A DNA stretch of 64,000 bases from Thiohalomonadaceae bacterium (GCA_041562215.1 JBFEYJ010000001.1:747-64746); one strand, 5' to 3'; numbered from the stretch's first letter, positions 6,295 to 26,399 are shown. Numbers and translations: made by a program. Notes: generated by a model from the sequence alone, not told the origin.

Positions 6295-6692
6295 CGTTGC
6301 TCGGTCACGATGTCCACCCCGCTCGCCCCTGCCTTGCGAGCGGCATCCAGCACCGTTACCGCCAGACCCAGAGGGGCGCCTCGATCGCCTCTCACCCGCA
6401 CCAGACGATCAGTGCGCCCGCTAAGCTGCTCGGCAAGCACGGCCTCAAGGTTCTCCGGCTCGACGAAGTGATCATCGATAAGGAAATGGCCTTCGGTATT
6501 GAGCACCACCTCCAGTTGATTGTCCTCGGTCATCACCTCACCGCTGTCTGCTACCGGCAAATCGATATTGAGCGCTTGCTCTTGCACAAAGTGTGAGGTC
6601 AGCATGAAGAACACCAACAGCAGGAAGACTATATCGATAAGCGGGGTCAGGTTCGGAACCTTGCTGCTGCGGCGACGCCCCTCAAACTGCAT
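6291..6692 (-). CDS. exbD: biopolymer transport protein ExbD/TolR
   Basis: ExbD signature NLTPLIDIVFLLLVFFM. The likely start is the ATG at 6692 (MQFEGRRR...) rather than the ORF-track start 6761, which lies inside exbB. Confidence 0.85.
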   Translation of the reverse strand: MQFEGRRRSSKVPNLTPLIDIVFLLLVFFMLTSHFVQEQALNIDLPVADSGEVMTEDNQLEVVLNTEGHFLIDDHFVEPENLEAVLAEQLSGRTDRLVRVRGDRGAPLGLAVTVLDAARKAGASGVDIVTEQR

Positions 6693-9074: not shown

Positions 9075-9075
9075 A

Positions 9076-9986: not shown

Positions 9987-12218
9987 TCAAAAATGTACGG
10001 AGAGACCCGCGGTATAGGTGCGTCCCTGGTTGACGACGATTGAGAGGTCCTCCTGGTCATATACCCCATCATCATTGCCATCGCCGTGACCACGCACTGT
10101 GTTGTAATAATTACGATCAAAGAGATTGTCGACGCGGGCAAAGAGCCCCCAATCGCCACTATCCGACGGACGGTCATAGTTGAGGAGCAGGTTGAAGGTG
10201 GTATAGCCGCCGATCTTCTCCTGGTTGATCTCATCCGCATAATAGGAAGACGTTGCATCCATCTCGAGACTCACCAGCCAGTTTGTCTTCGGCATCACAT
10301 GCGCCGTGACATTGAGATGGTGGTGCGGCACCCGCGGTACCTCATTGTCGGTGTTATCGTATAAGGTCGAGATATACTTCGGCGCACACGGCACAGGCGA
10401 GCTATAAGGGCTACAGGTCGAATCATAGGCCGGATTGTAAGTTTGCAGATAGAAGCTGTCGTACTTTGTGTACTCGGAGAGCATGTAGGTATAAGCCACA
10501 TCAAAGGAAAGCTTGCGCTGCGGATCCGTGCTCAGCGCCAACTCCAGACCACGGCTACGCATGTCACCGGTGTTGTCGTAAATGTTCCCACTTGCCGTGG
10601 TGTACTGGCCAGCGGTCGATTGAATGTGATCCTTGCGGTCAATCTGGAACAACGCCAGGTCAATATCCATCGATACACCAAACAGGCTGCCGCGACTCCG
10701 CATCCCCAGTTCGGTATTCAACGCATATTCCGGTTCCAGATCCGGATTGCCCTCAGTGCGCATTGTCGGGCTAGCGCTACCGACAAAGAGCTGTTCCACT
10801 GTCGGTGCGCGGAAACCGGTTGAAGCGTTGGCGTAGAAATCAAAATTAGTATTCAGCGCATAATTGCCGCCAAGGCGCCAGGAGGCGACCTTGAACTGTT
10901 TGCTGTCATCAAGAGTGCTGTCCAGGTTATCGGCATAGTCTAGATCGAGGACATCGTATCGACCGTTCAGGGTCATCACCAGCTTATCAGCAGGACGGAA
11001 CTTCACCTCGCCATAGATGGCACTCACCTTCTCATCCGTAGTGTTGTCATCATAAAGACCACCGACACTACAAGCTCCGTAGGCCTCAGAGCAGTCCAGG
11101 AAGGTGACCTCATTATCGTAACGGTTGTCCCGCAGGTCGGTTGCCAGCATCCAGGCCAGAGATTCTCCGCCGCTACGATATTCCGCCTTCACTCCTCGCT
11201 GCACCTGGTAATAATCGTTATCGTAAGTATAAGAAGAAGGATCAGCGTCAAGCGGTTTGGAGAGGAACCGGGTTTGGTCGGTAAACTGGTAGGTGTTGAC
11301 CATCAGATTGCTGTGATTGTCGATATCACTGGCGTAAGTCAGGAACAGCTTGTCAAGCACCACATCAAAACGGTTCGCATAATCATTATAGGCCGGGTCC
11401 TCGCTTCTCGGGTCCAGCTCGGCGGCAGTGACACCGAGCACACTGCCGTGACTGTTCTTTTCCCGATCGGAATGTTCGAAGCCGAAGGTCAGATCGCTGG
11501 CTTCATCCAGATAGTACTGCAGCTTGCCGTTAACATAATCAGCCTTGGAGGCCGAGTCGTCGTAATAGCCGTCAAGCTCACGACGCGATACCTGCACGTG
11601 GCCGTTGAAACTCTCCCCAGCGGTGCCCACTCGGGCCAGCCCTTTTTTGTAACCGAAACTGCCCGCCTCGGCACTGAGCCTGATTCCGGCATTGGCCGCA
11701 CCGCGCTTGGTGGTGATGATGACGGCGCCGGCCAGGGCATCATCGCCAAATAGATAGGAAGCACCGCCTTTGACCACCTTGATTGATTCGATGTTATCGA
11801 GATCGATATTCACCCGCCCGGTGCGCTCAAACACAGGCACCCCATCGATAACCACAGCAACTCCAGGGCGCTCCCCCATATAGACCTGGTTCTCGACACC
11901 GCGAATATGGATCTTGATCGAATCGCCACTCTGTACCTCGGTGGTAATCCCGGGCACACTCTGCAACAACTGTTGGATATTCTGTGTGTGCGCGACATCA
12001 ACCTCTTCAGCGCTGATCACACCGATATTCGAAGGCTCATCACGCTTATTCTCGAAACGGTCGTCGATGGTGGTCGATTCGACCTGAATAATTCCCAGTT
12101 CTTCAGCCACGGCAGTGCTGATTGGTGCCAAAAGGGATACCCCGGTCATCAAAACAGCGGTATGCAACCCAAAATGCGGAGCAAAAAAACTTTTCACACG
12201 ACTCTCCCAAATAACCAA
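9987..12218 (-). CDS. TonB-dependent outer-membrane receptor
   Basis: Plug domain (...IHIRGVENQ...VVIDGVPV...IESIKVVKGGASYLFGDDALAGAVIITTKRG), a long beta-barrel and the terminal ...TYTAGLSVHF. The probable true start is GTG 12197 (GGGAGAG upstream), giving the signal peptide VKSFFAPHFGLHTAVLMTGVSLLAPISTAVA. Confidence 0.9.
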   Translation of the reverse strand: MVIWESRVKSFFAPHFGLHTAVLMTGVSLLAPISTAVAEELGIIQVESTTIDDRFENKRDEPSNIGVISAEEVDVAHTQNIQQLLQSVPGITTEVQSGDSIKIHIRGVENQVYMGERPGVAVVIDGVPVFERTGRVNIDLDNIESIKVVKGGASYLFGDDALAGAVIITTKRGAANAGIRLSAEAGSFGYKKGLARVGTAGESFNGHVQVSRRELDGYYDDSASKADYVNGKLQYYLDEASDLTFGFEHSDREKNSHGSVLGVTAAELDPRSEDPAYNDYANRFDVVLDKLFLTYASDIDNHSNLMVNTYQFTDQTRFLSKPLDADPSSYTYDNDYYQVQRGVKAEYRSGGESLAWMLATDLRDNRYDNEVTFLDCSEAYGACSVGGLYDDNTTDEKVSAIYGEVKFRPADKLVMTLNGRYDVLDLDYADNLDSTLDDSKQFKVASWRLGGNYALNTNFDFYANASTGFRAPTVEQLFVGSASPTMRTEGNPDLEPEYALNTELGMRSRGSLFGVSMDIDLALFQIDRKDHIQSTAGQYTTASGNIYDNTGDMRSRGLELALSTDPQRKLSFDVAYTYMLSEYTKYDSFYLQTYNPAYDSTCSPYSSPVPCAPKYISTLYDNTDNEVPRVPHHHLNVTAHVMPKTNWLVSLEMDATSSYYADEINQEKIGGYTTFNLLLNYDRPSDSGDWGLFARVDNLFDRNYYNTVRGHGDGNDDGVYDQEDLSIVVNQGRTYTAGLSVHF

Positions 12219-12461: not shown

Positions 12462-12926
12462 ATGAAAGGAATGAATGGATTAAATGAAATTAACAGGCCC
12501 ACGCATATTCCCTCTGCGCTGAATAAATACGTCAGGCAGAACATCAAGTCTATGATGCAGGGTGAATTTAATCGGTATGTTGCCGGATTTCAGGATTTGT
12601 TGATGGTCAGTTCACCCCTGGCAGGGCGCTTCCAAAGACACATCGCACGCAAAGAAAATACAAGCTCTTCTCGCCCATTGACTGGAGACTACGCATTCCC
12701 TGCTGTGCATGGCGGCTGCGAAAGCAATCATCATCCACAGATAGTTATGAATAGCGTGGAGCAGATATTTTGTTACTTCACCGTACTCTGCTCCCGCCCC
12801 TCGATACCGGTGATGCCGAGTGTGCCGGGATTACCGCCAACTGGTTTTACCGTGAGCAGCCAGGTACCGCGCGAGGCGTTCCAGTACATTGGACCGTGTC
12901 CATCGAGCTGGAGCTGTGCGCTATAA
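12462..12926 (+). CDS. questionable small ORF (hypothetical)
   Basis: A strong AGGAGG SD lies 5 nt before ATG 12462, in the 550-bp AT-rich gap. However, the last ~150 nt run antisense through the 3' end of the subtilase gene, and no family is recognisable. Confidence 0.25.
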   Translation: MKGMNGLNEINRPTHIPSALNKYVRQNIKSMMQGEFNRYVAGFQDLLMVSSPLAGRFQRHIARKENTSSSRPLTGDYAFPAVHGGCESNHHPQIVMNSVEQIFCYFTVLCSRPSIPVMPSVPGLPPTGFTVSSQVPREAFQYIGPCPSSWSCAL

Positions 12927-14836
12927 CCCAAGGCGCTGGTGGCCTCAGCGATCAGTTTGTCCCCCCAGGGTTTGTACTCGGCACGGATAATATCGATGGT
13001 CAGATCATAACCATTGCAGTCCTGATCGATGCTGTCGTGCTTGATCTCGGTCGCTGCAGGATGGATTGCAGGGTCGGCATCGTTGCAGTCAATATCGGCG
13101 CTGTAGCCGTCAGCGTCGGCATCAGGCGGCGAAAGCGATTCGTCATCGACGAGCGTCAACACCGCCGACGTCGGCCAGCCCAGTGTTGCACCACCACTTC
13201 CCCCCAGGTGCAGGCTGAGTGTTTCGTCACCTTCGATCATCTCATCATCGAGCACGTTGACACTAAAACTTCTGCTCATCTCACCGTTGGCGAAATCAAG
13301 CGTGCCTATCACGGGTGTGTAATCAATCCCCTCCAGTGCCGTGCCACTGGCCGAATAGTAATCGACGCTCACAGCCCCGTAGTTGCCACCAAGACGGTTA
13401 ACAGTGATCTCTACCTTAAGTCCATTTTCGAGAACACTGTAATTGCCGGCGCTGAACTGCAAGTTGCCCGGTTGAGCCTGCTTCTGCAATTGATCGAGAG
13501 AGGCGACCAGATCGACCAGCCCCTGCCCCGTGTTGTTATCAGCGCCGATCGAATCGATATCGATGCTACTGCTGATCACCACCCCTTCGATCGCCGAGGC
13601 GGATGCTTGCGCCACAGCACTTTTAAGCAGGGCCATGCCGCCTGCAATTTGTGCAACGGAGAATGATGTCCCGCTGACATTGACATAGGCATCGGGGATC
13701 AGCCCACCGAAGGTAAGATCCGCGGTGCGGACATTGACCCCCGGTGCGACAACGGCCGGGAAGAGTGTCCCGTCACAGGCCGAAGGACCGCGACTGCTAA
13801 AATTTGCAACAGCACTTAATTCATCGACAGCGCCTACCGAAAGCACCTGGGCGTAATTTGCCGGGCTGAGGCTGCTGCCTGAGGCAGGCCCGGCGTTTCC
13901 AGCGGAGACCGCGACAGCGATGCCCGCTGCGCGCAGCACCTCGAGATCAGTCTGGAACTCGAACTCACAGACACCGACCGCATCGGAGAGACCCCAGGCA
14001 TTGCTCACCACGTCGGGGGCGTCATCCACATCAGGATTGCCGTCCGGATCGAGCAACCACTGAAAGGCGAGATGAATGTTGCTGTAGCTCGCGCTGCCGC
14101 TGTTGTCGAAAATCCTGGCAGCGATCCACTGCGCCCCAGGCGCAACCCCGATGGCGGTCCCGCCGTTGTCTCCACCGACGATGAGACCCATGGTCTGCGT
14201 ACCGTGACCGTTGGTGTCATGGGGCGAGGTATACTCACCACTGGGGTCAAACCAACTGTTGGCGCCACCACGCCACTTTGGCCCGATATCGGGGTGATGG
14301 GTATCGACCCCGGTGTCCAGCGACGCCACCACTACTCCCTGACCGGCAATCCCCTGTTGCCACAACAGCGGCGCTCCGAGCATCGAAAGATTCCACTCTG
14401 GCGTCACTGTACTGGCTCCCTCAGGTACCGGTACCGAGAGCGTGAGATCAAGAGAAATACTCTCTACCTCCGGGAACCGACGCAACTCCTCGACCAGCCG
14501 ACCGGGAACCTTTACTGCGAGACCATTAATCAACCACAGGCTTTTGATCTGACGAGCAGGCCTTCCCTTGAGAAAATTCAACAAAGGCTTTTCAGAGCGG
14601 GCGGACTCTGCCTGCAAGATTCGGATGATCCGAGCCCTTCTCTGAGATAGCCCGGACTCATTGAGTGGACGCAGATCGGGCCGCCCTGCAAAGCGAATAA
14701 TAAGCGCGATCTCCTTGTCGGGACTCAGTGTCTGCAAACGCTGCTCCAGTCCTGGAGTGATCCTTGCCGGCGCTGCAGCGTTGACTGCCCCGGCAGCCAA
14801 TACCGTCGCCAATATCGCGAACAGTGTGCGTGTCAT
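12773..14836 (-). CDS. secreted S8 subtilisin-like serine protease with Calx-beta-like and Cys-rich C-terminal modules
   Basis: AGGAGGG SD and signal peptide (...AAGAVNAAAP), followed by a propeptide-like N-terminus. Catalytic motifs are VVASLDTGVD (Asp), HGTQTMG (His) and SGTSFSVAQIAG (Ser). A Calx-beta-like block follows (VSVDYYSASGTALEGIDYTPVIGTLDFANGEMSRSFSVNVLDDEMIEGDETL), then the Cys-rich motif DADGYSADIDCNDADPAIHPAATEIKHDSIDQDCNG. Confidence 0.9.
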   Translation of the reverse strand: MTRTLFAILATVLAAGAVNAAAPARITPGLEQRLQTLSPDKEIALIIRFAGRPDLRPLNESGLSQRRARIIRILQAESARSEKPLLNFLKGRPARQIKSLWLINGLAVKVPGRLVEELRRFPEVESISLDLTLSVPVPEGASTVTPEWNLSMLGAPLLWQQGIAGQGVVVASLDTGVDTHHPDIGPKWRGGANSWFDPSGEYTSPHDTNGHGTQTMGLIVGGDNGGTAIGVAPGAQWIAARIFDNSGSASYSNIHLAFQWLLDPDGNPDVDDAPDVVSNAWGLSDAVGVCEFEFQTDLEVLRAAGIAVAVSAGNAGPASGSSLSPANYAQVLSVGAVDELSAVANFSSRGPSACDGTLFPAVVAPGVNVRTADLTFGGLIPDAYVNVSGTSFSVAQIAGGMALLKSAVAQASASAIEGVVISSSIDIDSIGADNNTGQGLVDLVASLDQLQKQAQPGNLQFSAGNYSVLENGLKVEITVNRLGGNYGAVSVDYYSASGTALEGIDYTPVIGTLDFANGEMSRSFSVNVLDDEMIEGDETLSLHLGGSGGATLGWPTSAVLTLVDDESLSPPDADADGYSADIDCNDADPAIHPAATEIKHDSIDQDCNGYDLTIDIIRAEYKPWGDKLIAEATSALGYSAQLQLDGHGPMYWNASRGTWLLTVKPVGGNPGTLGITGIEGREQSTVK

Positions 14837-15062: not shown

Positions 15063-15569
15063 TTACAAAACACTCAGATTCTCCACCACGAAATCGCCGA
15101 TCACGACCGATACCTTGTCACCGGACTTGACGTGCCGGGCCGGATTACTGAAGAGAATGAAGTAGTTGCGATTGGCTTGCACATGCTTCGTCGTCTGGCG
15201 CAAGGCGCCCAGTTTGTTGGTGACCGGTACTTCCAATCGTGCATCGTCCTTCTCCACGATGAGGTAGGGCTTAATACGACGGTCAAGCAGTGGTGCGGCC
15301 TTTTCCGCATCAACCACCCGATAGCGAAAATCCAGCATATAACCGGTGGCGGTGGCTTGAATACCCAGTACTTCAACGCCCCACTTTTGCCGGAGGGCGC
15401 CAACATGTTCCGGATCGGAATCGACACCGACACCGCCGTCTTCTCCATACGCCGGTTCCTTCTCCATTGGCTCACTTGAAGTGTTCGTGCAGCCTGCCAG
15501 AAACAATGCCCCCAGCAGCACAGTTATGCACAAACCTTCCACTCTCTTTTCCTGCTTGGTCTTCATCAC
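15063..15569 (-). CDS. hypothetical lipoprotein
   Basis: Lipobox LFLAGC after a basic/hydrophobic leader. 168 aa, co-oriented and tightly spaced within the oxidase operon. No family recognised. Confidence 0.7.
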   Translation of the reverse strand: MMKTKQEKRVEGLCITVLLGALFLAGCTNTSSEPMEKEPAYGEDGGVGVDSDPEHVGALRQKWGVEVLGIQATATGYMLDFRYRVVDAEKAAPLLDRRIKPYLIVEKDDARLEVPVTNKLGALRQTTKHVQANRNYFILFSNPARHVKSGDKVSVVIGDFVVENLSVL

Positions 15570-15636: not shown

Positions 15637-17517
15637 TTAAGGACCAACCGTTACCGTAACCGTGGCGACATTGGATAGCGCCCCCAGGTTATCCCGAATC
15701 GTATAGGTCACTGTCTCGACGCCAGTGAAACCACCGCCCGGGGTGAAGAAGATCGCATTACCCTTGGCATTCACTATGGCGGTGTTCAGCGGATTGGTGG
15801 GGCCATCGACAATGGCCAGCGAGCCCCAGTCAAGGGAACCGTCAGGATCCGAGTCATTGGCCATAACAGTAAGTTTAATGAAAGTGTCGACAGGTGTTGC
15901 GAAGGCATCATCCACAGCGACAGGCGGTTGATTTGCCGCCGGCGCGACCGTCAATGTTACTTGCACGGAATTGCCGCTCGCCGTGCCATCAAAGCTGTGG
16001 TAGGTGAAGCTGTCGGCACCGGCGAAGCCGGGATTAGGGATATAACGGAATGCCCCGCCCTTCCATAGGGTAACAGTACCGTTGGTTGTGGCGTTATCGA
16101 GAACAGCTGTAAGGGTGTCGCCATCCACATCGGTATCATTAACCAATACACCGGGGGGCGGCACGTTGAGAGTGGTATCGACACCACCCGCATAGCTGTC
16201 GGCAACCGTTAGCGGGATGTCGTTAACCGGCGTAACCGCCACACTCACGTTGGCGATATTGCTCGTCATCAGCCCGTCGCTAGCGGTATAGGAAAAGGTT
16301 GCCGTACCGTTGAAATCCGCTGGCGGGGTATAGTCGAAAGAGCCGTCCCCATTGAATATCAGCGACCCCTGATTGGCGACAGCCTGCAATGTTGCCGTCA
16401 AAGCGGTCCCGTTGTCATTTCCGAGCACACCTGGAGCGGTGATGGTGAGCGTTGACTCTTCCGCCGTAGTGAAAAGATCGTCCGCGGCGAGCGGGCGGTC
16501 TGCCCCGCCAGGCCCTACAGCCAGATAGCTGTAAATCCCCCCGGGACCTGCACCGGCATTGGTCAGGCTGAGACGATGGTCAAACAGCGGATAGTTTCCC
16601 TCGGCATTGGCCAGCAGGATCGCATCACGCGTCTTGCCGGCCGCCATCATCACCGAATACTGCTTGCGCGGATACGGGTAAGCACTGCCATCCTCGGCAA
16701 TGATCTGCAGAGGCTCCCCCAACACGCTCGGCACCAGCGTGCGCAACGACATGTTGACCATGCGAAGCAGGGTACGTGTGCCCGCCGCTCCTGCTGGAAG
16801 GGGCGTGGTGGCGGCACTGTACGGGGCGCCATTGACCAGAAAATATTTTGGCTTGTAATCGAAAGTGCTGGTCGGCCCTGTGCTGCCGTATGTGCCACCG
16901 GCAATCGCCGCATGCATTGCCGGATCGAGTTCGCTATAGAACAGCATCAGTTCCTGATCGTAGGTGATGCCGGGATAGGCCTCGCCCACTGCAGCATCCT
17001 TGCTGGCTGTGCCATAAAGTCCCATCTGTACCTGCACCGCCACATGGCTGCCGCTCTGGTAGGCATAGGTTCCAGGCTGGAAATCATTCCAGGTATAGAT
17101 CCCGGTGGCGCCCGGTGCGGTTTCGTGGGTAAAAGAGCGCACACGTGAACGCCCTTGGCCATCGGTAAAGAATACCGGTGTCATGGACGTCGACTGACCG
17201 CTAATCACCAGTGATGTTTCCACAGGCAGTTCATTCAGCAGGTTGATAGTGAGGCTTGTGTCGGCACTTGGCACGCTTATCGCCGGGCCTGGTAGTTGCA
17301 CAGGGTTGCCGCAACCATCACCAAGATTGGCATTGTCGTCTTCCGCATATCCCCACACAGCGATAATATTGCCATCGGGCATAGTCAGGTTCGTGCTCCC
17401 GGCACAGAGAAAGACCTCTGCCGCTTGCACCAATCCACCGGCCAGCCCCAGCCCCAACGCCAGTCCGGAGAGCAGGCTGGTCTTTCTCACGGTTCTGTTC
17501 ACAATCGTCTCCTCCAC
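15637..17517 (-). CDS. secreted cupredoxin/multicopper-oxidase-fold protein without copper ligands, C-terminal Ig/cadherin-like repeats
   Basis: Signal peptide present. The N-terminal ~330 aa parallel the neighbouring MCO (IAVWGYAE...LPGPAISV; YAYQSGSHVAVQVQMGLYG versus YYHSGSRPDLQIEMGLVG), but there is no HxH motif anywhere. The C-terminus has three ~95-aa repeats (PGVLGNDNG...FDYTPPADFNGTATFSYTASDG; PGVLVNDTDVDGDTL...FRYIPNPGFAGADSFTYHSFDG; VMANDSDPDGSL...FTPGGGFTGVETVTYTIRDN). Confidence 0.75.
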   Translation of the reverse strand: MEETIVNRTVRKTSLLSGLALGLGLAGGLVQAAEVFLCAGSTNLTMPDGNIIAVWGYAEDDNANLGDGCGNPVQLPGPAISVPSADTSLTINLLNELPVETSLVISGQSTSMTPVFFTDGQGRSRVRSFTHETAPGATGIYTWNDFQPGTYAYQSGSHVAVQVQMGLYGTASKDAAVGEAYPGITYDQELMLFYSELDPAMHAAIAGGTYGSTGPTSTFDYKPKYFLVNGAPYSAATTPLPAGAAGTRTLLRMVNMSLRTLVPSVLGEPLQIIAEDGSAYPYPRKQYSVMMAAGKTRDAILLANAEGNYPLFDHRLSLTNAGAGPGGIYSYLAVGPGGADRPLAADDLFTTAEESTLTITAPGVLGNDNGTALTATLQAVANQGSLIFNGDGSFDYTPPADFNGTATFSYTASDGLMTSNIANVSVAVTPVNDIPLTVADSYAGGVDTTLNVPPPGVLVNDTDVDGDTLTAVLDNATTNGTVTLWKGGAFRYIPNPGFAGADSFTYHSFDGTASGNSVQVTLTVAPAANQPPVAVDDAFATPVDTFIKLTVMANDSDPDGSLDWGSLAIVDGPTNPLNTAIVNAKGNAIFFTPGGGFTGVETVTYTIRDNLGALSNVATVTVTVGP

Positions 17518-17530
17518 AGTTATGGGGCCA

Positions 17531-18787
17531 TCACTCGATGGGTGTACCAGGCGGTTCGATAATCATCATGGTCATCATGCCGCCCGGAAATATGTCGTTA
17601 TTAACCAGTTCTCTCTCCGTGTGCGAGTGCCACATGAAGAACATGCCCCCATTTGCGTTCAGTCCGCCCTCGCCTGGAGGAAGAGTGCCGAAGGCACCGA
17701 GGAAGGGACTGCCGCTCCAGAAACCACCGAAAGTGAGGTCCTGATTCTCAGGCAGCACAACCGGGATAGGCTTGCCGTGGTCGGCCGGATCCTCGAACGG
17801 CGCCAACGGATCGCCGGGAGCATGGCCATAAAAGTCCCAGCCCATGCCTTTGCCCGTCCAGCTGAAAAGCGCATCGTAAGTGGCGCCGGGAACGACCTTA
17901 ACGGTGAAATCGGTGATGCCCAGGTCCGGGCCTGCTCCCGGACTGCTTTCCAGCAGATAACCGTCACGGGCAACCTGGAGGATGTGATTACCGTGGGTAT
18001 GGAAGGGATGGAGATCACGACTCGCCCCAATCAGCCGTGTCAGCACCCTATCGCCCGGGTGCATACGCGGCACGATGTTGTAAGGCTGATGTGGCAGCAA
18101 GGGGCTGTTGGCAGGCGCCAGTGTGTCAGGTCCGTTTCGTCCGTTGATGAACCACAGCACCGGGTGGTAGACGGTGGTGTCGATCTCCGCATACAGACCG
18201 CGATCGACCTGGTAATGGATCTCCGGATCCATCTCCGTCAGCAGGAACAGGTACTCATAATCAAAGGCTGTGTCAGCGTGATTGTATGCCTGTTTCGGTG
18301 CACCGCTCGGGCGGACGATCAGTGCACCGACCAGTCCCATCTCTATCTGCAGATCGGGCCGGGAACCACTGTGATAATAGAATGTGCCCGGACGGCCGGC
18401 AGTGAAGGTGTAGCTCACCGGATCGGCAGGTCCACTACTCTCCTGGGTCAACATCCCTGCCGTGCCGCCTGAAGCCGCCACATTAGGCAATCCCGGGAAA
18501 ACGATAGAGACCGGCTGCGGCAGGCTATTGCTGAGGTTGATCGTGACGGTGTCCCCCTGGTTAACGATAAGGGTTGGTCCCGGATACTGCATCTGACCGC
18601 CGTCCACGCCATAACCCCAGATCAACAGGCTGTCTCCATCAGGTGTATTGATGTAACCGGACGATGCGGTCAGATTGAAGGTCGTCCCGGTAATGCCGTC
18701 GATGGCGGCCTGGGCCTGCATGCTGCCAAGCAGCATGCCCAGCAACACCGCCGCCAGCCACCCTCTTGTACGTTGTTGAATTTTCAT
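17531..18787 (-). CDS. multicopper-oxidase-family protein, trinuclear-site His pairs kept but type-1 Cu site lost
   Basis: AGGAGA SD plus ATG 18787 (the ORF-track start 18823 is an upstream extension). Signal peptide ...GSMQAQAA. The first domain has degenerate motifs (VSIVFPG, YYHSGS). The last domain keeps HPFHTHGNH and FMWHSHTERE, i.e. two HxH pairs, but Ser replaces the canonical Cys of HCH and the following His is absent. Confidence 0.8.
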   Translation of the reverse strand: MKIQQRTRGWLAAVLLGMLLGSMQAQAAIDGITGTTFNLTASSGYINTPDGDSLLIWGYGVDGGQMQYPGPTLIVNQGDTVTINLSNSLPQPVSIVFPGLPNVAASGGTAGMLTQESSGPADPVSYTFTAGRPGTFYYHSGSRPDLQIEMGLVGALIVRPSGAPKQAYNHADTAFDYEYLFLLTEMDPEIHYQVDRGLYAEIDTTVYHPVLWFINGRNGPDTLAPANSPLLPHQPYNIVPRMHPGDRVLTRLIGASRDLHPFHTHGNHILQVARDGYLLESSPGAGPDLGITDFTVKVVPGATYDALFSWTGKGMGWDFYGHAPGDPLAPFEDPADHGKPIPVVLPENQDLTFGGFWSGSPFLGAFGTLPPGEGGLNANGGMFFMWHSHTERELVNNDIFPGGMMTMMIIEPPGTPIE

Positions 18788-18819
18788 GGATCGTCTCCTG
18801 AGCTCGAGTCGGGTGGCCG

Positions 18820-20049
18820 TCAATTGATACGGATCTCGGTCATCATGCCGCCAAAGTCCTCGGTACCATTGCTGAGGAAATTGAGATTCGTGGTGTAGAG
18901 AAAGTAGGTGCCGGGAGCAACCGATGCGGTATCAATGATCACATCCACAGATTCACCACCGCCCAGAGTGACCGAGTTAGTCTCATAGACGGTTTCGATC
19001 CCCTGCACCGGGCCCTCGCCGTCCGGGTCAGGGCCGCGTAAAAGCCGGGCTCCGGTACCGACCACACGCATCTTCAGTCCCATGCTCTGCAAGGTGTAGA
19101 AATTGGTCACATTCAGGTTGGAGATACGCAGCAGAATTTTCTCGCCACTTGTCGCCGTCACCAGAGAGCTGACGGCTTGTGAGACCTTTCCGCCATTCTC
19201 AACCGGTGGAGTGAGTGGTGCGGGATTTACTGTATCCGGATAGCCACGGCCGTTGAGCATGGCGTAGTTGTCTTTCATGTTGGCAAATGGCAGTGGCTGC
19301 ACATTCAGGCTCGCATCGTGGAACTCGGCATCGAACGAACCGATCTGCAGCGGATATTCGACATCGTAAAAGGTGGAACCATCACCGTCGTTGTATACAT
19401 ACTTGAAGCCACTCTGGTGAGTGAATCCATTAAGCTGTGCACCCGCCGGGAGATCGTTCTGAATCGGTTGCACGTAGAGGTTGCCGAGCATGCCCATTTG
19501 CATATGCTCGGTCGCCTCCACATGGCAGTGATACATATAGGTACCGGGTTCAATCAGGTTGTAATAGTAGGTCATGCTCGATCCCATATTGATGGAGACC
19601 GAGGCATCGGGCACCCCATCGAACACCGTCGAGGCATTGGGAAAACCATGGAAATGAACGGTATGCGGATCGAACAGATCCGGCCGCATCATCATCCCGA
19701 CATTGGTCAGGGTCAGGAAAAACTCCTGCCCCTGCTTCAACGTTATGGTCGGTGCCGGAAAGGCGGCGGCAAGGTTACCGGAGGTCATCGCCTGAGCTTC
19801 AGTAATACCGGTCAGGTCGGAAAATCCGAACATGTACTGCAGACGTCCGTCTGCCATGTTGATGAAGCCGTCACCGGCTCCCAGGTGCATGCACTTGAGC
19901 TGGTTCGGGTCATAGGGTCCATCCGGCACGGCATCGCCGTTGTTGTCTCCCGGGCATTGCACATAGACCGCTGCTTGCGCCGGCAAACCGATGCCCGCCA
20001 AAACCAGTGCTGTGGCAGCCGAGAGAGCCCTTAGCCTGAACTTGTTCAT
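18820..20049 (-). CDS. two-domain multicopper oxidase with complete type-1 Cu site in its N-terminal domain
   Basis: GGAGGAG SD and signal peptide ...GLPAQAA. Domain 1 carries HTVHFHG and YMYHCHVEATEHMQMGM, i.e. two HxH pairs plus His/Cys/His/Met type-1 ligands. Domain 2 carries no His ligands. 4-nt overlap with the downstream gene frame. Confidence 0.85.
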   Translation of the reverse strand: MNKFRLRALSAATALVLAGIGLPAQAAVYVQCPGDNNGDAVPDGPYDPNQLKCMHLGAGDGFINMADGRLQYMFGFSDLTGITEAQAMTSGNLAAAFPAPTITLKQGQEFFLTLTNVGMMMRPDLFDPHTVHFHGFPNASTVFDGVPDASVSINMGSSMTYYYNLIEPGTYMYHCHVEATEHMQMGMLGNLYVQPIQNDLPAGAQLNGFTHQSGFKYVYNDGDGSTFYDVEYPLQIGSFDAEFHDASLNVQPLPFANMKDNYAMLNGRGYPDTVNPAPLTPPVENGGKVSQAVSSLVTATSGEKILLRISNLNVTNFYTLQSMGLKMRVVGTGARLLRGPDPDGEGPVQGIETVYETNSVTLGGGESVDVIIDTASVAPGTYFLYTTNLNFLSNGTEDFGGMMTEIRIN

Positions 20050-20111
20050 GAGCGAACTCCTCCTCTTCAGACCCTGGCCGCCTGATGCGGCCAGGGCTTG
20101 GTTTTAATGGG

Positions 20112-23100
20112 TTACGGTTGCGCCACTTCGTCAGCGCCAATGTCCGTGCCCGCTCCGGCGGGGCGCGTTTGCGCATCATAATCAACAGCCAAGTCAGTGA
20201 AATCCGCCGGCACAGCCCCATCACCTGCATCGATCGCAGGCGAGCCTGCCGAGAGGTGGTAATCACCAGTGAGGCTCAGCGGTCCGAAGCTGACATCGAT
20301 GAAGTTGCCACCCTCGTCAAAGGCAGGAGCCGCAGCCAGTGAAGTGGTCAATTCAGGTATCAGAATGGTCTGGCCGCGATCACCATTGAAGTAGCTAGCG
20401 ACGAATGCCGGGTCGACCGGGATATTGCTGGGGTCGTAGCCGGTAACATCGGTCAGGATGCTGTTCAGCGGGTTCAGGCTGCCGGTAACACCGAGTACTG
20501 CCAGGTCATCATAAACAGCCGGGTCTCCCGCTCCTACATTGGGCACAAAACCGAAGATGGACTGTGCGGGATTGGCCTGATCCGGCTGAATCGCCCAGTA
20601 GAAGGAGCGGTTCTGCCAAATGATGTTATTCACCAGGGTCGGATTGGAGAACGCCCGATACTGATCCAGCGCCGTGGACGGATAGATGAGGCTACTCAGT
20701 GCGAGACTGTTGGCCCTGGAGACAATGCCTGCTGGTTGCGCAGTACTCTGGTTGGGGCTGCCGGGCAAGAAGGCCTCACCCGCGGTCGCCGTGCTGTCAT
20801 TGTGAGCGATGGTGTTGTTGATGATCTTCACCATCAGCGAGTCCTGCAGCGAGATACCGCCACCGGCAAGTCCGGCCACGTTATTGGTCATGATGTTGTT
20901 CATCACATTAACGCGATACCAGCGGTTGATACCGGCCGGGTGACGCGCTATATCCTCGCCATTAACCCGCTCGGTGCGGATGCCACCACCGTCGCCGGCA
21001 CCGGCCTGGTTGCCCTGGATCAGGTTCCCGTCGATGGTAACGTGGCCGGAACCGGGGCTCACCGCGCCTGCCAGACCGACCTGTCCGCCGATATAGATCC
21101 CGCCACCGGAGACCGACACACCCTGATTGAAGGACTGATTGAACAGGATCTTGTTGTCGGCGATGCGGCCAAGCCAGCTCAGACCGAGATGACCGATACC
21201 ACCACCATGACCCTGGCTGAAGTTGCCGCAGATGAAGTTGGAGGTCACGCTGTAGCCGCTGGCGCCGGTATAGAGTGCGATTCCGCCACCGGCGCCGGCG
21301 AGACTTCCGTTCTGCACCACCTGGTTATTGTGGATATTGATGCGTTTATTACCTGCGTCGGTGTAGATCTCGCCAAGGGTCGGATCCTGACTGACCAGAT
21401 CGGCATGGCCGATGCGAATACCGCCGCCGAACAGTCCCTGGTTGGCGACCAGGCGGTTATTGCTGATCTCCAGGTAACTTGCATAGCCGTTGACGAAGAT
21501 CGCTCCACCATGGTCTCCACCGGTAATGGTCACGCCATCAATGCGGGCATGATGCTCGCCGCCACGGAATTGCAGACGCTTACGCACGGTGGTACTACCC
21601 AGCACCGTAATGCCCGCTCCCTCACCATCGAACAGCAGCACAGGCTCGTTATCGGTGGGAACAAACCCGGCTCCCTGGCCGGGCAACAGTTCGAAGGCCC
21701 CGGCGGTGAGAAGCGAGGCCACCTTGTTACGCCACTGCTGCAGTTTCTCGGCAGGTGCCTTGCGAGCATTGAGCACCGTGGCATAAGGACCCCAGCCCTG
21801 CAGGCGCACCGGCTTGTACATCAGCACCATTTCGTTGTAGGTACCGGGTGCGAGCATGATGATGTCCTGTGGGCGGGCGATGTCGATGGCATCCTGGATC
21901 GGCGTTGCCGCGGGATCGGCACTGGGCAGGACCGGGATAACCGACATACGATTCGGCAACGGGCCGACCGTGACGGTCACACCGCCGGGTGCACTCTCAC
22001 CACCCGCCGTGGTGACCATCAACTGGCCGGTAGTGGCCCCGGCCGGAACGGTACCGGTGATAATACCGTCGCTCCAGCTCACACCACTCAGCGGCACACC
22101 ACCCACGGTCACCTCACCGGCAGCATTGCCGAAACCATAATGACGCGAGATCATCCGTGTGGTCGCCGCCGTGCCGTCATAGGCAGGATTAGGCACATCC
22201 ATATCACCCACCGCGACAATGGTCAGTGTCTGACCCGGCTCCACGTAAGGACCACTACCAGCCGGTCCGGATACGGTGTAAATGAGTGGTGTACCGGCAG
22301 GCTGCTCACAGTCCAGCGGGCTGCCCGGACCGGCAAAAGCGGCAATCGGCAGCACCGGCGTATCCAGGTAGGTAGTACCACCGGGCATGTATTGGAAGGT
22401 GTAGCAGAACTGGCTGTAACGCCGATCGTAATGCGGATCGACAATTATCTCAGGTACAGTGGGGTTGCTCACCGGATCGTAGGCCGGATTGGGGATCGGT
22501 CCCGCGTCGTTCATGCACGCGGAGATCATGTTGGGCGAGACGCCGGAGGCCATTGGCAGGTTCACAGAATAGCTCGATGGCAGCATGGCATTGAACTTTC
22601 CCCACTCATCGGAGTAGGTGCGCACGATTTCACGACCGGTCCAGTCACGGAACGATACCGGCAACCACGGCGGCGCAAACTTCTCACCGAAGGTCGGTGC
22701 ATTGGGATCGAACTCGTTGGCCAGATCGTTGAGGATCCCACCGACTACCATGGCTGCCTTGGGCGTTTCGGTAAAGAGGAAGAAATCGGCCGCCGAGTTC
22801 TGGCCCTGGGTCAGGTGCACCTTTTTTCGGTCGCACAACGGACGGTCTGTACCGGCATAAGGTGCAGCGATCAGATCGGCCGGTGCGATCCCCGGATAGG
22901 GGGTACCTGAAGCGTCGGTCTGCATCGTCAGGTACGGCGGCACAGTGTGCAGCGTGCCGACACAAACGTTAGGCAACAGCAACGGTGAGGGGGTGTAGGC
23001 GTCACCGAAATCGACGTTTTTATCCTCCTCCTTCAGCAGCTCGTAGCCTGGCGGTACCTTCACTTCAACAACATAGTCTCCCGGAACCAGCGGAGGATTG

Positions 23101-25334
23101 GCCGGGTCAGCCGGGTCGCCGGGACCGAAGGCATAGCCGCCGTCGAACACACCGGGACGGACCTGGTTAAAGTTGCGCAAGCCGTCGTAGCAATCGGTGG
23201 GAACACCGTCGACGCTGAAAACAGCACCCTGGCAACCGGTGGGCACGCTGTCGTCCCAACTGTCGGTATGGGTTACACGCAGTGCATCGCCGTTGTCGAA
23301 TACGCCATTGGCGTTGTGATCGGTGTCCTCGATACCGGGGAAATTGCCGAGCGGGTAGTTGTCCACGTCAGGTGCGGTAATAATGCCGTCACCGTCCTGA
23401 TCGAGGATATTACCGTCGATATCGGCCTGATAGAGGTTGACCTGTATCCGCGGGATACCGGGCTCCCACTCCTCACCAACCGCATAACGCGGGTCGTTCT
23501 CAGCGCGGGTAATGGCATAGAAAACGATACCGGAGATCCCGCCGTTCTCAGCGGCATCATAGGGTGCCTTGCCCCACTCGAAGCGGTTTGTCTGGCCAAG
23601 GAAACCCTGGAATGCCTGGGTCAATACCGGACCGGTCTCGGTACGAGAGAGATTGTCAGCGGTATTGGGGTTAATCAGTGGCTGTCCCAATTCGGCGGTC
23701 GTGCAGAATCCCGCCTCCACATCACCCTGGGTACAATTTTGCGGCTGTGGGGTGAGCACCTCACCGGCGGCAACCGGTCCACCATTGTCCACCGACACCG
23801 TCAGGCCGGTCGCCTTCAGGCGGGCGAAATCCACCTCAGCAACCAGCCAGTGGAAGAAGGGGAAGACCTCATCGAAGGGGGCTTCTCCATTGTTGTCCAC
23901 CGGCATCGCCTGATAGATACGACCATCACGGAAGCGCAGGTTAACAGCTGCCTGATCGGCGCCCAAGGGGGCGTCATCCAGCGTTGGGTCATTGCATTCG
24001 GCCGTCACGCAGTCGCGGAAACCGTTTTTGTTGCGATCGAAAAAGACAGTGTGCTCGCTGCGATGGAACCAGTTGAATACCGGCACATCACCCAACGCGA
24101 TGCTTCCCCCACCAACGGGGACCGTCACCGGCAGTGTCGAGATAATGACATCCAGGGGTTTGTCCCAGACAACCAGCTCATAATCGCCGGGGGGAACGTT
24201 ATTGATCTGGAAGCTACTGTCGGCATTACACGGCTGGGCATAGACCCCTTGTCCGGTACCGACAGGCGCATCGTTCAGGCCGACCCAACAGCCGGGGATC
24301 GGATGGCCGCTGTAAAAAGTAAAATCGGGCGGTCGTGAATTATGCAGATTAGTGACGGTGCCACTGATGCTGGAGCTGCCCGGCGGCTGCGCCGTGTCGC
24401 AATAGCCGACCGGATTGGTTGCGGCAGCATTGTAGCAGTCGAAAGTTTTAATGAAGCCGATGAAGACATGATGTCCCGGCGGTCCGAACTCGGTGAAAAA
24501 GCGTGGCTCGTTGGCCTTCACCCAAGCGTCAATCGTCTTACTGCCCTCGATGGTATGAGTCTGATGCCAGTCCTGCCCTGCCGGCGGGACCAGCTGAACA
24601 CCGTACTTGCCAGGCGACAGATTCTTGACCAGCGCAACACCGTCTACGTCGGTGAGGATTACCCCATCCCCCAATACATTGACCGTGCCGTCTGCGTTAT
24701 AGCTGGTTCCGAGCGGATTGCCGAAGGCATCCTGAAGAATTTGGCCACCGGCAGCACCATACTGTCCTGCGGCATCGAACAGCAACACGCTGAAACCCGG
24801 CAAACCGACCTCCTGCGGCAGGTCGGGAGCGTTATTGATCGGGGACTTATCCTCGAAGGCAAAGATCGATATTTGCGCTGTCGGTAACGGATGCGGCGCA
24901 ACCACAAGAGTCACATCCGCCGTCGCCGTAACCTGATCGAAACTCACCTCCCCACCAACATTGCTATAACCGGCAAAGGGCAGTACCGAAACGAAATAGC
25001 GTTTGTCCGTATCGACCCCCGTGATGGTCGCCGTGGTGCCCGCCGTCTCACCCTGCTGCAGCACCGGCGAGTGGCTGGTATGGAATTTCAGCGAGGGGGT
25101 ATCCAGAGTATGCACACCCGGAATAACCGCCGTGGTGTGATCTTCTTCCAGTAACCAGCGAAAACCGGAAACCGGGTTGGCGCTGCCATCCTGCACCTGT
25201 AGATTGATACTACCAGGCACCGCGTGTGCCGGTGACATGATCAGCAGGCAACAAACCAGAGTTGCTACCCATAAGGCGTGAATGGCCGACCACTCATCCG
25301 TGCTCCAAGACACCTGTCGACTGTTCATGTTCAT
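20112..25334 (-). CDS. giant secreted protein: beta-sandwich repeats + IPT/TIG-like module + long parallel beta-helix (PbH1) region
   Basis: GGGAGAG SD plus ATG 25334 (ORF-track start 25385) and signal peptide ...LLIMSPAHAVPG. An IPT/TIG-like block is present (GEVTVGGVPLSGVSWSDGIITGTVPAGATTGQLMVTTAGG). Many beta-helix turns follow: ISNNRLVANQGLFGGGIRIGH, IHNNQVVQNGSLAGAGGGIALY, VTSNFICGNFSQGHGGGIGH, IDGNLIQGNQAGAGDGGGIR, MNNIMTNNVAGLAGGGISL, IINNTIAHNDS. No CxxCH or HxH metal motifs were seen. Confidence 0.85.
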   Translation of the reverse strand: MNMNSRQVSWSTDEWSAIHALWVATLVCCLLIMSPAHAVPGSINLQVQDGSANPVSGFRWLLEEDHTTAVIPGVHTLDTPSLKFHTSHSPVLQQGETAGTTATITGVDTDKRYFVSVLPFAGYSNVGGEVSFDQVTATADVTLVVAPHPLPTAQISIFAFEDKSPINNAPDLPQEVGLPGFSVLLFDAAGQYGAAGGQILQDAFGNPLGTSYNADGTVNVLGDGVILTDVDGVALVKNLSPGKYGVQLVPPAGQDWHQTHTIEGSKTIDAWVKANEPRFFTEFGPPGHHVFIGFIKTFDCYNAAATNPVGYCDTAQPPGSSSISGTVTNLHNSRPPDFTFYSGHPIPGCWVGLNDAPVGTGQGVYAQPCNADSSFQINNVPPGDYELVVWDKPLDVIISTLPVTVPVGGGSIALGDVPVFNWFHRSEHTVFFDRNKNGFRDCVTAECNDPTLDDAPLGADQAAVNLRFRDGRIYQAMPVDNNGEAPFDEVFPFFHWLVAEVDFARLKATGLTVSVDNGGPVAAGEVLTPQPQNCTQGDVEAGFCTTAELGQPLINPNTADNLSRTETGPVLTQAFQGFLGQTNRFEWGKAPYDAAENGGISGIVFYAITRAENDPRYAVGEEWEPGIPRIQVNLYQADIDGNILDQDGDGIITAPDVDNYPLGNFPGIEDTDHNANGVFDNGDALRVTHTDSWDDSVPTGCQGAVFSVDGVPTDCYDGLRNFNQVRPGVFDGGYAFGPGDPADPANPPLVPGDYVVEVKVPPGYELLKEEDKNVDFGDAYTPSPLLLPNVCVGTLHTVPPYLTMQTDASGTPYPGIAPADLIAAPYAGTDRPLCDRKKVHLTQGQNSAADFFLFTETPKAAMVVGGILNDLANEFDPNAPTFGEKFAPPWLPVSFRDWTGREIVRTYSDEWGKFNAMLPSSYSVNLPMASGVSPNMISACMNDAGPIPNPAYDPVSNPTVPEIIVDPHYDRRYSQFCYTFQYMPGGTTYLDTPVLPIAAFAGPGSPLDCEQPAGTPLIYTVSGPAGSGPYVEPGQTLTIVAVGDMDVPNPAYDGTAATTRMISRHYGFGNAAGEVTVGGVPLSGVSWSDGIITGTVPAGATTGQLMVTTAGGESAPGGVTVTVGPLPNRMSVIPVLPSADPAATPIQDAIDIARPQDIIMLAPGTYNEMVLMYKPVRLQGWGPYATVLNARKAPAEKLQQWRNKVASLLTAGAFELLPGQGAGFVPTDNEPVLLFDGEGAGITVLGSTTVRKRLQFRGGEHHARIDGVTITGGDHGGAIFVNGYASYLEISNNRLVANQGLFGGGIRIGHADLVSQDPTLGEIYTDAGNKRINIHNNQVVQNGSLAGAGGGIALYTGASGYSVTSNFICGNFSQGHGGGIGHLGLSWLGRIADNKILFNQSFNQGVSVSGGGIYIGGQVGLAGAVSPGSGHVTIDGNLIQGNQAGAGDGGGIRTERVNGEDIARHPAGINRWYRVNVMNNIMTNNVAGLAGGGISLQDSLMVKIINNTIAHNDSTATAGEAFLPGSPNQSTAQPAGIVSRANSLALSSLIYPSTALDQYRAFSNPTLVNNIIWQNRSFYWAIQPDQANPAQSIFGFVPNVGAGDPAVYDDLAVLGVTGSLNPLNSILTDVTGYDPSNIPVDPAFVASYFNGDRGQTILIPELTTSLAAAPAFDEGGNFIDVSFGPLSLTGDYHLSAGSPAIDAGDGAVPADFTDLAVDYDAQTRPAGAGTDIGADEVAQP

Positions 25335-25642
25335 TTCGGCTCTCCCACTCACTGATTCAGTAGCACTGAACAGACGACGACCCATCGCCTGCCTTTACAC
25401 CGTGTCGCCGGAATACCGTTAACCTCAACAATACCGGTCGTCACGCATAACAACAGCCATCGAAAAACAGCCTAGTGATTAGCTAAAGTTTTACCGGTCG
25501 GTGCAGCCCCTATTTCCATGGGGGGACGACCCTATGAGCAAGGTAGTTGTGCACCTGACTGACAAGGACGAAAAGCAGCCTGCGGCAAATGCGGGATTCA
25601 TTGAAACTTCAGGAGATGACATTAGGAAGATAACGGAGAGTA

Positions 25643-26020
25643 TTACGAGGATTTCGCGGCAAGGTGATGTTGTACCAGTGAAAGGATATCGCCGGGAGAA
25701 GTCGTTTCCTTGCACAGAAAATCACTGGCGCCATTGGCAAATGCCGCCTCGCGATATTCAGGCAGATCATAACTGGTCAGAATAATGACATTGGTCGTCG
25801 CATCGGCATCCTTGAAAATGCGGGTCAGTGCGAGGCCGTTTTCACCTGGAATATTGATGTCCATCAACACCAGATCAGGACGCAATGACGCCGTCACAGC
25901 AATAGCTTCCTCGCCAGTACCGACATCAAGGATTTCTATTGCGGGAAAATGCTCTTGCAACAATAAGCGCAGGGTTGTGCGAAAACCAAGATTGTCTTCC
26001 ACAAGCAGTGTGCGAAACAT
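25643..26020 (-). CDS. single-domain CheY-like response regulator
   Basis: GGAGG SD plus ATG 26020 (MFRTLLVEDN...). Receiver motifs are DLVLMDINIPGENG, IILTS and LCKE. There is no output domain. Confidence 0.85.
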   Translation of the reverse strand: MFRTLLVEDNLGFRTTLRLLLQEHFPAIEILDVGTGEEAIAVTASLRPDLVLMDINIPGENGLALTRIFKDADATTNVIILTSYDLPEYREAAFANGASDFLCKETTSPGDILSLVQHHLAAKSS

Positions 26021-26399
26021 TTTCACGGCCTCCACTGCAGGGTCCACCTGCACCATATCCAGTTCACCAGGAATCTGTATCGCAACACACTCTCATGGCG
26101 GAGTAATTCCTACGAAAAGCAGATTAGTGAATAGCCGTGCTGATGTATCCCCGGTTGACACCCCAGTCCTGCCAGTGCATTACCCTATATTTTTTTCGGT
26201 TTTTCTCCGCACAGGAATTATGACAATGTTCATCTATACTGCTGAAACAATAGAGGAGCCCTCCGCGGCCGGGTAGTAGCTGCCCGTGCGTTCAGTGAAA
26301 CTGCGGATCGCATCAGGCAAAAACAAGCTCTGTCACTTGCAACAATTGAGTGACAACTACCATAATTTCTGAACAGCACTCACTTGTAGGGGAAAAAGC

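Follow-up and report, generated by a model that had tools for sequence, protein, structure and literature searches.

The locus and its complementary copper-ligand motifs

The 64,000-nucleotide stretch of DNA from a Thiohalomonadaceae bacterium analyzed here (GCA_041562215.1, JBFEYJ010000001.1:747-64746; hereafter the window) holds, within 12.7-25.4 kb, six co-directional open reading frames (ORFs) on its minus strand, which we designate G, A, B, C, S and P (Table 1). A, B and C encode two-domain cupredoxins related to multicopper oxidases (MCOs), and the intergenic gaps from G through A, B and C to S measure 62, 32, 13 and 67 bp, the spacing of a tightly packed operon. We propose that the locus probably encodes an obligate hetero-oligomeric MCO, in which A, B and C would form a 1:1:1 ring with one trinuclear copper cluster between domain 2 of B (B.d2) and domain 1 of A (A.d1), and in which this ring would be tethered to the giant protein G. 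The three ORFs of the initial annotation, which correspond to A, B and C, are present on the minus strand where it had placed them. For B, the ATG at 18787 is the gene call of the public collection (418 residues); the mechanical ORF has 430 residues and starts from a TTG at 18823, and residues of B are given below in the 430-residue numbering.

Table 1. Positions of the genes, domains and motifs discussed in the text, counted from the first nucleotide of the window.
Feature	Position	Strand	Description	Basis
G	20112-25385	minus	1757 residues; secreted giant protein	
A	18820-20049	minus	409 residues; two-domain cupredoxin; proposed catalytic subunit	
A motif HTVHFH	19648-19665	minus	Residues 129-134; H129 type-1 ligand, H132 and H134 trinuclear-cluster ligands	
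A motif HCHVEATEHMQMGM	19489-19530	minus	Residues 174-187; H174 and H176 cluster ligands, C175, H182 and M187 type-1 ligands	
B	17531-18787	minus	418 residues; two-domain cupredoxin; domain 2 would supply half of the trinuclear cluster	
B motif HPFHTH	17993-18010	minus	H275 and H277 cluster ligands; H272 at the vestigial type-1 position	
B-specific insertion	17648-17863	minus	About 70 residues (B residues ~321-392), in domain 2	hhalign
B motif HSH	17621-17629	minus	H399 and H401 cluster ligands; S400 at the type-1 Cys position	
C	15637-17517	minus	626 residues; ligand-free two-domain cupredoxin with repeat tail	
C core	16504-17517	minus	Ligand-free two-domain cupredoxin paralog; proposed ring-closing subunit	
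C tail	15640-16503	minus	Three Big_9/cadherin-like (tandem-95) repeats; proposed tether to G	
S	15063-15569	minus	168 residues; small membrane- or lipid-anchored protein	
P	12773-14836	minus	687 residues; secreted S8 subtilase	Pfam
Receiver protein	25643-26056	minus		Pfam
LuxR-type response regulator	26400-27059	plus		Pfam
PAS-HisKA_3 kinase	27012-29069	minus		Pfam
Type II secretion genes	29062-45491	minus	M, L/PilN-like, GspB, GspA, secretin GspD, GspK, GspF, GspE; apparently complete	Pfam
SCO1/SenC copper chaperone gene	30977-31768	plus	Between the type II secretion genes and the sensor kinase	

The copper ligands of the locus are divided between A and B. Pfam assigns Cu-oxidase_3/_2 to residues 84-195 of A and Cu-oxidase to residues 283-387, and both HxH pairs and the full type-1 site of A lie in domain 1. 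Domain 2 of A (A.d2) is free of ligands, reading NLNVTNFYTLQSMG and NFLSNGTEDFGG at the positions where B carries HPFHTHG and WHSH. B also has two HxH pairs, both in domain 2, and its ligand-free domain 1 (B.d1) reads PVSIVFPG and YHSGS at the positions where A carries HTVHFHG and YHCH; it has no type-1 site, and no His follows the HSH motif. The only His residues of C are H131, H158, H202 and H314, with no HxH and no conserved Cys, and the protein gives weak Pfam matches to Cu-oxidase_3 and Cu-oxidase. The corresponding segments of the three proteins, taken from profile alignment, are given in Table 2.

Table 2. Segments of A, B and C at the four copper-ligand sites in the profile alignment.
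Site	A	B	C
Domain 1, site 1	DPHTVHFHG	PQPVSIVFPG	PVETSLVISG
Domain 1, site 2	YHCHVEATEHMQMGM	YHSGSRPDLQIEMGL	YQSGSHVAVQVQMGL
Domain 2, site 3	NLNVTNFYTLQSMG	RDLHPFHTHGNH	MSLRTLVPSVLG
Domain 2, site 4	NFLSNGTEDFGGMMT	MWHSHTERELVNNDIFPGGMMT	RLSLTNAGAGPGGIYS

A trinuclear cluster needs eight His, supplied as four HxH pairs, and the type-1 Cys is flanked by two of these His, an arrangement that wires the type-1 copper to the cluster. The full four-motif set (the HxH pairs of both domains together with the type-1 Cys, His and Met) occurs in no single chain of the locus and is complete only as A plus B, and the ligand count matches exactly one trinuclear cluster per A, B and C. No MCO-type motifs besides those of A and B were found in real ORFs of the 64-kb window. 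The motifs agree with the initial annotation, which had located HTVHFH and HCHVEATEHMQMGM in domain 1 of A only; its description of C, as lacking HxH and ending in three immunoglobulin (Ig)/cadherin-like repeats, is borne out by Pfam, NCBIfam and the His inventory. Its conclusion that A or B alone is insufficient, and that together they supply eight His and one type-1 site, likewise agrees with the ligand map of the orthologs described below.

Paralogy, ligand invariance and gene order

Comparison of the ortholog profiles with hhalign identifies A, B and C as collinear, full-length two-domain paralogs (probability 99.8% for A-B, 99.5% for A-C, and 100% for B-C with E = 1e-54). Their cupredoxin fold is supported by matches to the Pfam families Cu-oxidase, Cu-oxidase_2 and Cu-oxidase_3 and to MCOs in the PDB, of which the best sequence matches of A and B are the type C two-domain enzymes 3g5w (Nitrosomonas europaea blue copper oxidase), 2zwn (metagenomic mgLAC) and 3gdc (Arthrobacter 2dMCO). 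In alignment, A.d1 corresponds to domain 1 of 3g5w (PHTIHWHG; YHCHVNVNEH) and B.d2 to its domain 2 (VHAIHTHG; IHDH). The same alignment bears on the annotation of B: the HxH pairs in domain 2, the Ser in place of Cys and the lack of a later His were all correct, but the Ser is not a loss peculiar to B, because 3g5w has H-D-H there and the Ser of H-S-H takes the position of the Asp of the type C enzyme. Scores against the named families are low (19-39 bits against a cutoff of 296 for the NCBIfam NirK model, 28-55 against 479 for the CopA-type model TIGR01480, and 20-25 against 525 for CueO). As the NCBIfam MCO, CueO, laccase and NirK models all fall far below their cutoffs, A, B and C are no ordinary members of the named MCO families.

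Two-domain MCOs are trimers, and each trinuclear cluster forms where domain 1 of a chain meets domain 2 of its neighbor. A shares with type C enzymes the two cupredoxin domains per chain and the type-1 site in domain 1, where it stands with HxxHxH and HCH motifs; type C domain 2 carries HxxHxH and HxH without the type-1 Cys, as B.d2 does, and the trinuclear cluster lies between subunits, as we predict for A and B. The difference is one of distribution. One type C chain bears both halves of the site, so that a homotrimer holds three clusters, whereas none of A, B or C supplies cluster ligands from both of its domains: here the halves reside on two paralogs, the third has none, and at most one cluster and one type-1 site would be available per three chains. 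One paper on these enzymes likewise states that they are trimeric (PMC13151041). Judged by their sequences, A, B and C look like a triplicated type C two-domain MCO whose copies have kept the domain 1 ligands, the domain 2 ligands and none, respectively.

A scan of one genome per species (GTDB species representatives) returned at least 571 loci from more than 10 phyla, with E-values that are relative to the candidate sets. Ligand statistics were taken from 76 A orthologs, 77 B orthologs and 76 C cores of more than 10 phyla, obtained from 84 fetched loci whose ORF starts were set mechanically and may be over-extended. All ligands of A (H129, H132, H134, H174, C175, H176, H182 and M187) are 100% invariant, and so are H272, H275, H277, H399, S400, H401, E405 and N408 of B, with E403 at 99%; no conserved HxH or Cys was found among the C cores. 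On the evidence of these alignments, the conservation of the complementary ligand pattern is far beyond chance.

These data also bear on the possibility that A acts alone, for example as a homotrimer; it would then either transfer electrons through its type-1 site or resemble NirK in using a reduced mononuclear site at its own interfaces, with B and C as degenerate non-catalytic paralogs. A holds the sole type-1 site and is the most conserved of the three proteins, and NirK, which is found among the weaker PDB matches, is built from three identical two-domain cupredoxin chains and has a copper site between subunits. That site, however, is a mononuclear type-2 site of three His, and NirK has neither H-C-H nor a double HxH; its pattern consists of His-Cys without a second His and of HxxxxH spacing. 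The motifs of A (HxxHxH and H-C-H) are of MCO type, B adds HxxHxH and HxH, and all eight cluster His are present. Furthermore, apart from the structural H244 (DWYH type), conserved ligand His residues are lacking in A.d2, and a decayed paralog would not be expected to keep the four His of B.d2 together with its invariant S400, E405 and N408 and nearly invariant E403. We consider action of A alone very unlikely.

The remaining invariant His residues do not add ligands. A H244, B H203 and C H202 (96%) are mutually aligned at the start of domain 2, and because their counterpart in ascorbate oxidase is the His of the DWWH motif, which binds no metal, they are not missed ligands; a hidden metal site at this position was rejected. 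The search for His ligands that the initial annotation might have overlooked returned none. A further invariant His, B H349, lies within an insertion specific to B (Table 1). Neither A, C nor 3g5w has this insertion, which matches the remainder of B in conservation (mean pairwise identity 0.62) and contains invariant Trp, Asp and His residues (WTG, WD, DHGKP); it may form a lid or a channel, or a surface for contacts, close to the cluster. The notion that H272, S400, E405 and D410 of B constitute a new hard-metal site remains speculation, given that type-1 copper is already missing at this position from type C enzymes (3g5w has HDH).

Two other conserved elements are found in A. An N-terminal extension, VQCPGDxNGDA...KCMHL (window 19890-19970, residues ~27-55), has C32 and C53 conserved at 99% and H55 at 93%, and an invariant YNDGDGST loop separates the two domains; neither element occurs in B, C or 3g5w.

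Mean pairwise identity decreases from A.d1 (0.71) through A.d2 (0.64) and B (~0.60, rising to 0.73 in the C-terminal segment that bears HSH) to C (0.50), an order that fits catalytic, half-site and structural roles. Despite having no ligands, C is still strongly constrained.

Among the matches listed, of thousands scored, homologs are 65-91% identical to A, and they include those of the cultured organisms Desulfatiglans anilini, Dissulfuribacter thermophilus and Kaarinaea lacus; the closest among the loci listed in the species scan belongs to a Thiohalomonadaceae metagenome-assembled genome (MAG) with 91% identity. Hosts in the Gamma- and Betaproteobacteria include Thiobacillus, Gallionella, Sulfuricella, Thioploca, Sedimenticola and Methylocaldum, and others include Desulfobulbaceae, Geobacter, Myxococcota, Bdellovibrionota, Acidobacteriota, Planctomycetota, Nitrospirota and Cytophagia. 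The gene order G-A-B-C-S-P recurs across phyla, with P last in most loci. Counting only loci with enough flanking sequence to judge, B follows A in 76 of 77 and G lies upstream of A in 63 of 65. C is found in all 73 that could be judged for it, after B in 70 and as a C-G fusion in three. In one gammaproteobacterial MAG (M2_maxbin2_scaf2bin.326), two complete G-A-B-C copies occur on different contigs, indicating that the cluster can be duplicated within a genome; P stands at the end of both copies, and S was not detected in either.

A locus in which no single protein has a complete site might be taken for a set of decaying duplicates, or an annotation artefact, with no coordinated function. The intact ORFs, the kept order and the 50-70% identity over more than 10 phyla and at least 571 loci effectively refute this explanation, whose probability we regard as negligible. 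In terms of assembly, the ligand map implies that no interface in a complex made of A alone, or of B alone, would have more than four His, and that eight can meet only at a B.d2/A.d1 interface. Since the ligand-free C is always encoded alongside, a 1:1:1 ring is the simplest assembly.

The giant protein G, gene fusions and accessory genes

The N-terminus of G is an array of CnaB/SdrD-B-type beta-sandwich domains, with faint Pfam matches to SdrD_B, SpaA and CarboxypepD_reg, and consensus motifs point to a likely TIG-like domain. Its C-terminal third carries parallel beta-helix/NosD-like and choice-of-anchor Q (choice_anch_Q) signatures (NCBIfam). An AlphaFold2 (AF2) model of residues 45-1160, with a predicted local distance difference test (pLDDT) score of 73, displays a beta-sandwich array resembling the Bacillus anthracis TIE protein, SdrD, Gram-positive pilins and alpha2-macroglobulin. 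Profile searches found no homolog of G in the PDB, and what the fold search returned were merely generic beta-sandwich arrays of the stalk type; G showed neither heme nor copper motifs. Full-length identity of the protein between phyla is 43-66%, which is unusually high for a surface stalk.

Gene fusions connect G to two of the three cupredoxins. C and G are joined through Ig-type repeats in three Acidobacteriota, where the gene order is A-B-[C-G]-S, and G is fused to A in Gallionella and in one planctomycete. Among the top 120 homologs of G, seven consist of G fused to mature A, with a linker of two or three Big_9 repeats in six and a different linker in one; among the best 150 A relatives (50%-identity cluster representatives), 29 are G-A fusions. 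The two kinds of fusion indicate that G is physically assembled together with both A and C. In the G-A fusions, the linker joins A near its N-terminal extension. At the unfused locus of the window, the 62-bp spacer between G and A contains a 10-bp GC-rich hairpin (20072-20096), through which transcript processing or attenuation may set how much A is made relative to G; the G-A fusion lineages are without this hairpin-bearing spacer.

The tail of C begins at about residue 340 with the first of its three Big_9/Cadherin_5/Cadherin_4 repeats (Pfam, NCBIfam). It accounts for a total length of C that varies from 326 to more than 1000 residues, and it is missing from Dissulfuribacter and several Desulfobulbaceae/Desulfobulbus MAGs, in which C is a bare core of 326-348 residues. 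Because the same repeats link G-Ig-A and C-Ig-G fusions, and because the tail is absent in Dissulfuribacter, they are more likely a tether to G than a substrate adhesin. The initial annotation had cast C as non-catalytic, either a scaffold or a subunit that binds substrate or surfaces, and had called its repeats adhesin-like; the non-catalytic role stands, with no conserved HxH or Cys in the 76 orthologs, and the fusion linkers favor a tether over an adhesin. Its three-protein unit is conserved as well, yet incomplete, as G, S and the S8 protease also belong to it.

The fusions and the variable tail could also be read to mean that A and B form the copper centre in some other ratio (A2B, AB2 or A3B3), with C as a separate tethering or binding accessory. 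Fusions join G to A and to C without tying C directly into a ring, and C is the least conserved of the three proteins. Nevertheless, the C core is a full-length two-domain paralog of B, it accompanies every one of the 73 loci at 50% mean pairwise identity across phyla without any ligand to preserve, and in Dissulfuribacter it is retained as just such a core. A mixed A/B trimer, moreover, would leave four-His half-sites at its other interfaces. We regard this arrangement as unlikely and prefer the A:B:C ring.

A, B and C each have their own signal peptide, that of A being of the general secretory (Sec) type; export of A by the twin-arginine translocation (Tat) route was rejected, as the Tat motif occurs in 0 of 120 A homologs. 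S is a conserved member of the cluster with no Pfam or NCBIfam match. Its AF2 model consists of an anchor helix or lipobox, a disordered linker and an Ig/filamin-like beta-sandwich core (pLDDT >95), for which the best Foldseek match in the PDB was not significant (E 0.017); 68 of 120 homologs carry a lipobox. A role of S as a copper chaperone of the NosL or PCuAC kind is not supported, since it has no conserved His, Cys or Met. Pfam identifies P as an S8 subtilase that also carries a Calx-beta domain and a Cys-rich motif of the MopE type.

Upstream of G lie genes for regulatory proteins, an SCO1/SenC copper chaperone and type II secretion (Table 1). A kinase/regulator pair of the same kind stands upstream of G in the Kaarinaea locus (L004), which also has an SCO1/SenC gene (929-1606) beside the kinase. 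SCO1/SenC is a possible copper-loading factor for a Sec-exported oxidase.

Downstream of P, the window encodes a TonB-dependent receptor (9987-12218), an unassigned 304-residue ORF and a Fer4_5 polyferredoxin (8028-9143), followed further downstream by DsbD_2 (7338-8024), ExbB (6682-7422) and TonB (5590-6294). The genes between 5590 and 12218 could be a metal-uptake module; that the TonB receptor and ExbBD form part of the system was rejected, as they are not conserved at other loci. At the far end of the window, positions 54000-64000 have a GC content of 41-43%, against 50-61% in the rest. This low-GC block encodes a Ser/Thr kinase with AAA_16 (1329 residues, 55372-59361), a YcaO cyclodehydratase (60301-62484) and a thiazolinyl-imine-reductase-like protein (62522-63556), and is probably a horizontally acquired cluster of the azoline type, or of the type that makes ribosomally synthesized and post-translationally modified peptides.

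Proposed assembly and relation to known oxidases

In the assembly that we propose, a type C two-domain MCO would have undergone gene triplication followed by complementary ligand loss. A, B and C, exported separately via Sec, would meet outside the cytoplasm in a 1:1:1 pseudo-threefold ring of six domains in the order A.d1-A.d2-C.d1-C.d2-B.d1-B.d2, which is the topology of ceruloplasmin, unfused. Metal would be bound at the B.d2/A.d1 interface only, with H132, H134, H174 and H176 of A and H275, H277, H399 and H401 of B holding three coppers, and H129, C175, H182 and M187 of A would hold the single type-1 copper, for four coppers per ring. Substrate would deliver electrons one at a time to the type-1 site, from which they would pass through C175 and H174/H176 to the interface cluster, where O2 would be reduced to water; C, having no ligands, would close the ring. 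Attachment to the G stalk and beta-helix would be provided by the C repeats here and by covalent G-Ig-A or C-Ig-G linkage in other lineages. S would act as a membrane-anchored accessory protein and P as a maturation protease, copper might be loaded outside the cytoplasm by the nearby SCO1/SenC protein, and the adjacent type II secretion system may display the complex. The substrate may be an extracellular metal ion (Fe(II), Mn(II) or Cu(I)), or the enzyme may scavenge O2 at oxic-anoxic interfaces; this is a guess of low confidence, drawn from the habitats of the hosts and the metallo-oxidase nature of the closest architectures.

Several points weigh against this assembly. MCOs are usually exported by Tat, and the Sec signals seen here would mean that copper is loaded after export. 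Adjacency to type II secretion genes is shown for this window only, and adjacency to SCO1 for this window and one other locus. There is no A-B or B-C fusion among the 84 loci or the 150 representatives; the known fusions join G to A and G to C, never to B, and the contacts of B with both A and C are ones that we infer. Finally, the strict anaerobes Desulfatiglans anilini and Dissulfuribacter thermophilus carry the cluster, which is odd for an O2-reducing enzyme.

The anaerobic hosts, together with the resemblance of G to a pilin- or adhesin-type stalk, raise the question of whether the eight-His interface is an O2-reducing trinuclear copper site at all: it might serve other metals or another oxidant in strict anaerobes, or the locus might specify a structural or adhesive organelle with a vestigial redox module. 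Nonetheless, each residue of the ligand set has its equivalent in canonical MCOs, down to the axial Met and the Cys-His wiring of the type-1 site, and a vestigial module would not remain 100% invariant. Most hosts, in addition, live at oxic-anoxic interfaces (e.g., Thiobacillus, Gallionella, Thioploca and Nitrospira). We judge this explanation highly improbable and retain the reading of A, B and C as a copper oxidase.

The closest architectural counterparts are the six-domain MCOs (ceruloplasmin, hephaestin and bacterial MnxG), which have a single trinuclear cluster at one of three equivalent interfaces. The proposed complex would resemble them in forming a pseudo-threefold ring of six cupredoxins with one cluster interface and the others vestigial. 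Six-domain MCOs are, however, single polypeptides, whereas the ring would be built from three ORFs with signal peptides of their own. Ceruloplasmin also has type-1 sites in domains 2, 4 and 6, compared with the one here, located in a domain that also provides half of the cluster.

An MCO within a multi-protein complex is likewise found in Bacillus Mnx (MnxE/F/G) and the iodide oxidase IoxA/IoxC, but in these the catalytic ligands are not split between subunits. MnxG carries all copper motifs, and its partners are small and non-cupredoxin. IoxA alone carries all four copper-binding regions (PMC9415286). The iox cluster includes SCO1/SenC genes and flanking type II secretion (gsp) genes (PMC9415286), a pairing paralleled by the SCO1 gene and the secretion system of this window. 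OmpB of Geobacter and MofA of Leptothrix are similar in being large MCOs outside the cell with adhesion-type domains and a link to metal redox chemistry, and OmpB is secreted by a type II system. In contrast to A, B and C, they are single chains with their own copper motifs, and their neighbors are mofB/mofC-type genes instead of G, S and an S8 protease; no homology of OmpB or MofA to G was seen, though no direct comparison was made. Gene clusters of the OmpB/MofA type include SCO1/SenC (PMC5566968).

Full-text literature searches found no description of a split-ligand or heteromeric two-domain MCO, and one close item. He et al. (2017) reported 'three tandem MCO-coding genes' in Sideroxydans lithotrophicus ES-1, predicted to be extracellular and without homology to known metal oxidoreductases, for which no function was inferred (PMC5566968). 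The same report describes the cluster with a mofC-like gene and a chaperone gene, and mentions neither split ligands nor a heteromer (PMC5566968). These tandem genes are probably of the same family as A, B and C; members of the Gallionellaceae are among the hosts of the A/B/C loci. The transcriptome paper on ES-1 does not mention MCOs, and a preprint on O2 reduction by cable bacteria refers to them as an analogy only.

To our knowledge, a single gene encodes all eight cluster His and the type-1 ligands in every characterized MCO, and where the enzyme is a two-domain homotrimer the cluster is shared between identical chains. The cofactor chemistry of the present locus is familiar, and what is new is the architecture, which is genetically split and, in our proposal, heterotrimeric and tethered to a giant protein. 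We lean, by a small measure, toward describing the complex as an 'unfused ceruloplasmin', that is, a split-cluster heterotrimer with a purely structural third subunit, mounted on a G protein of ~190 kDa (estimated from its 1757 residues), intermediate between homotrimeric two-domain and six-domain MCOs, and a widespread extracellular oxidase.

If correct, this would represent a new quaternary solution for MCOs, with the cluster divided equally between two genes and the ring closed by a ligand-free paralog, and it would capture, in directly testable form, a stage of the proposed evolution of six-domain enzymes such as ceruloplasmin from two-domain trimers. The family is wide, with A ~60-90% identical across phyla and hundreds of species represented, among them sulfur, iron and nitrogen cyclers and sulfate reducers. 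Its substrate, once identified, could point to a redox process outside the cell that has so far been overlooked in sediments and groundwater.

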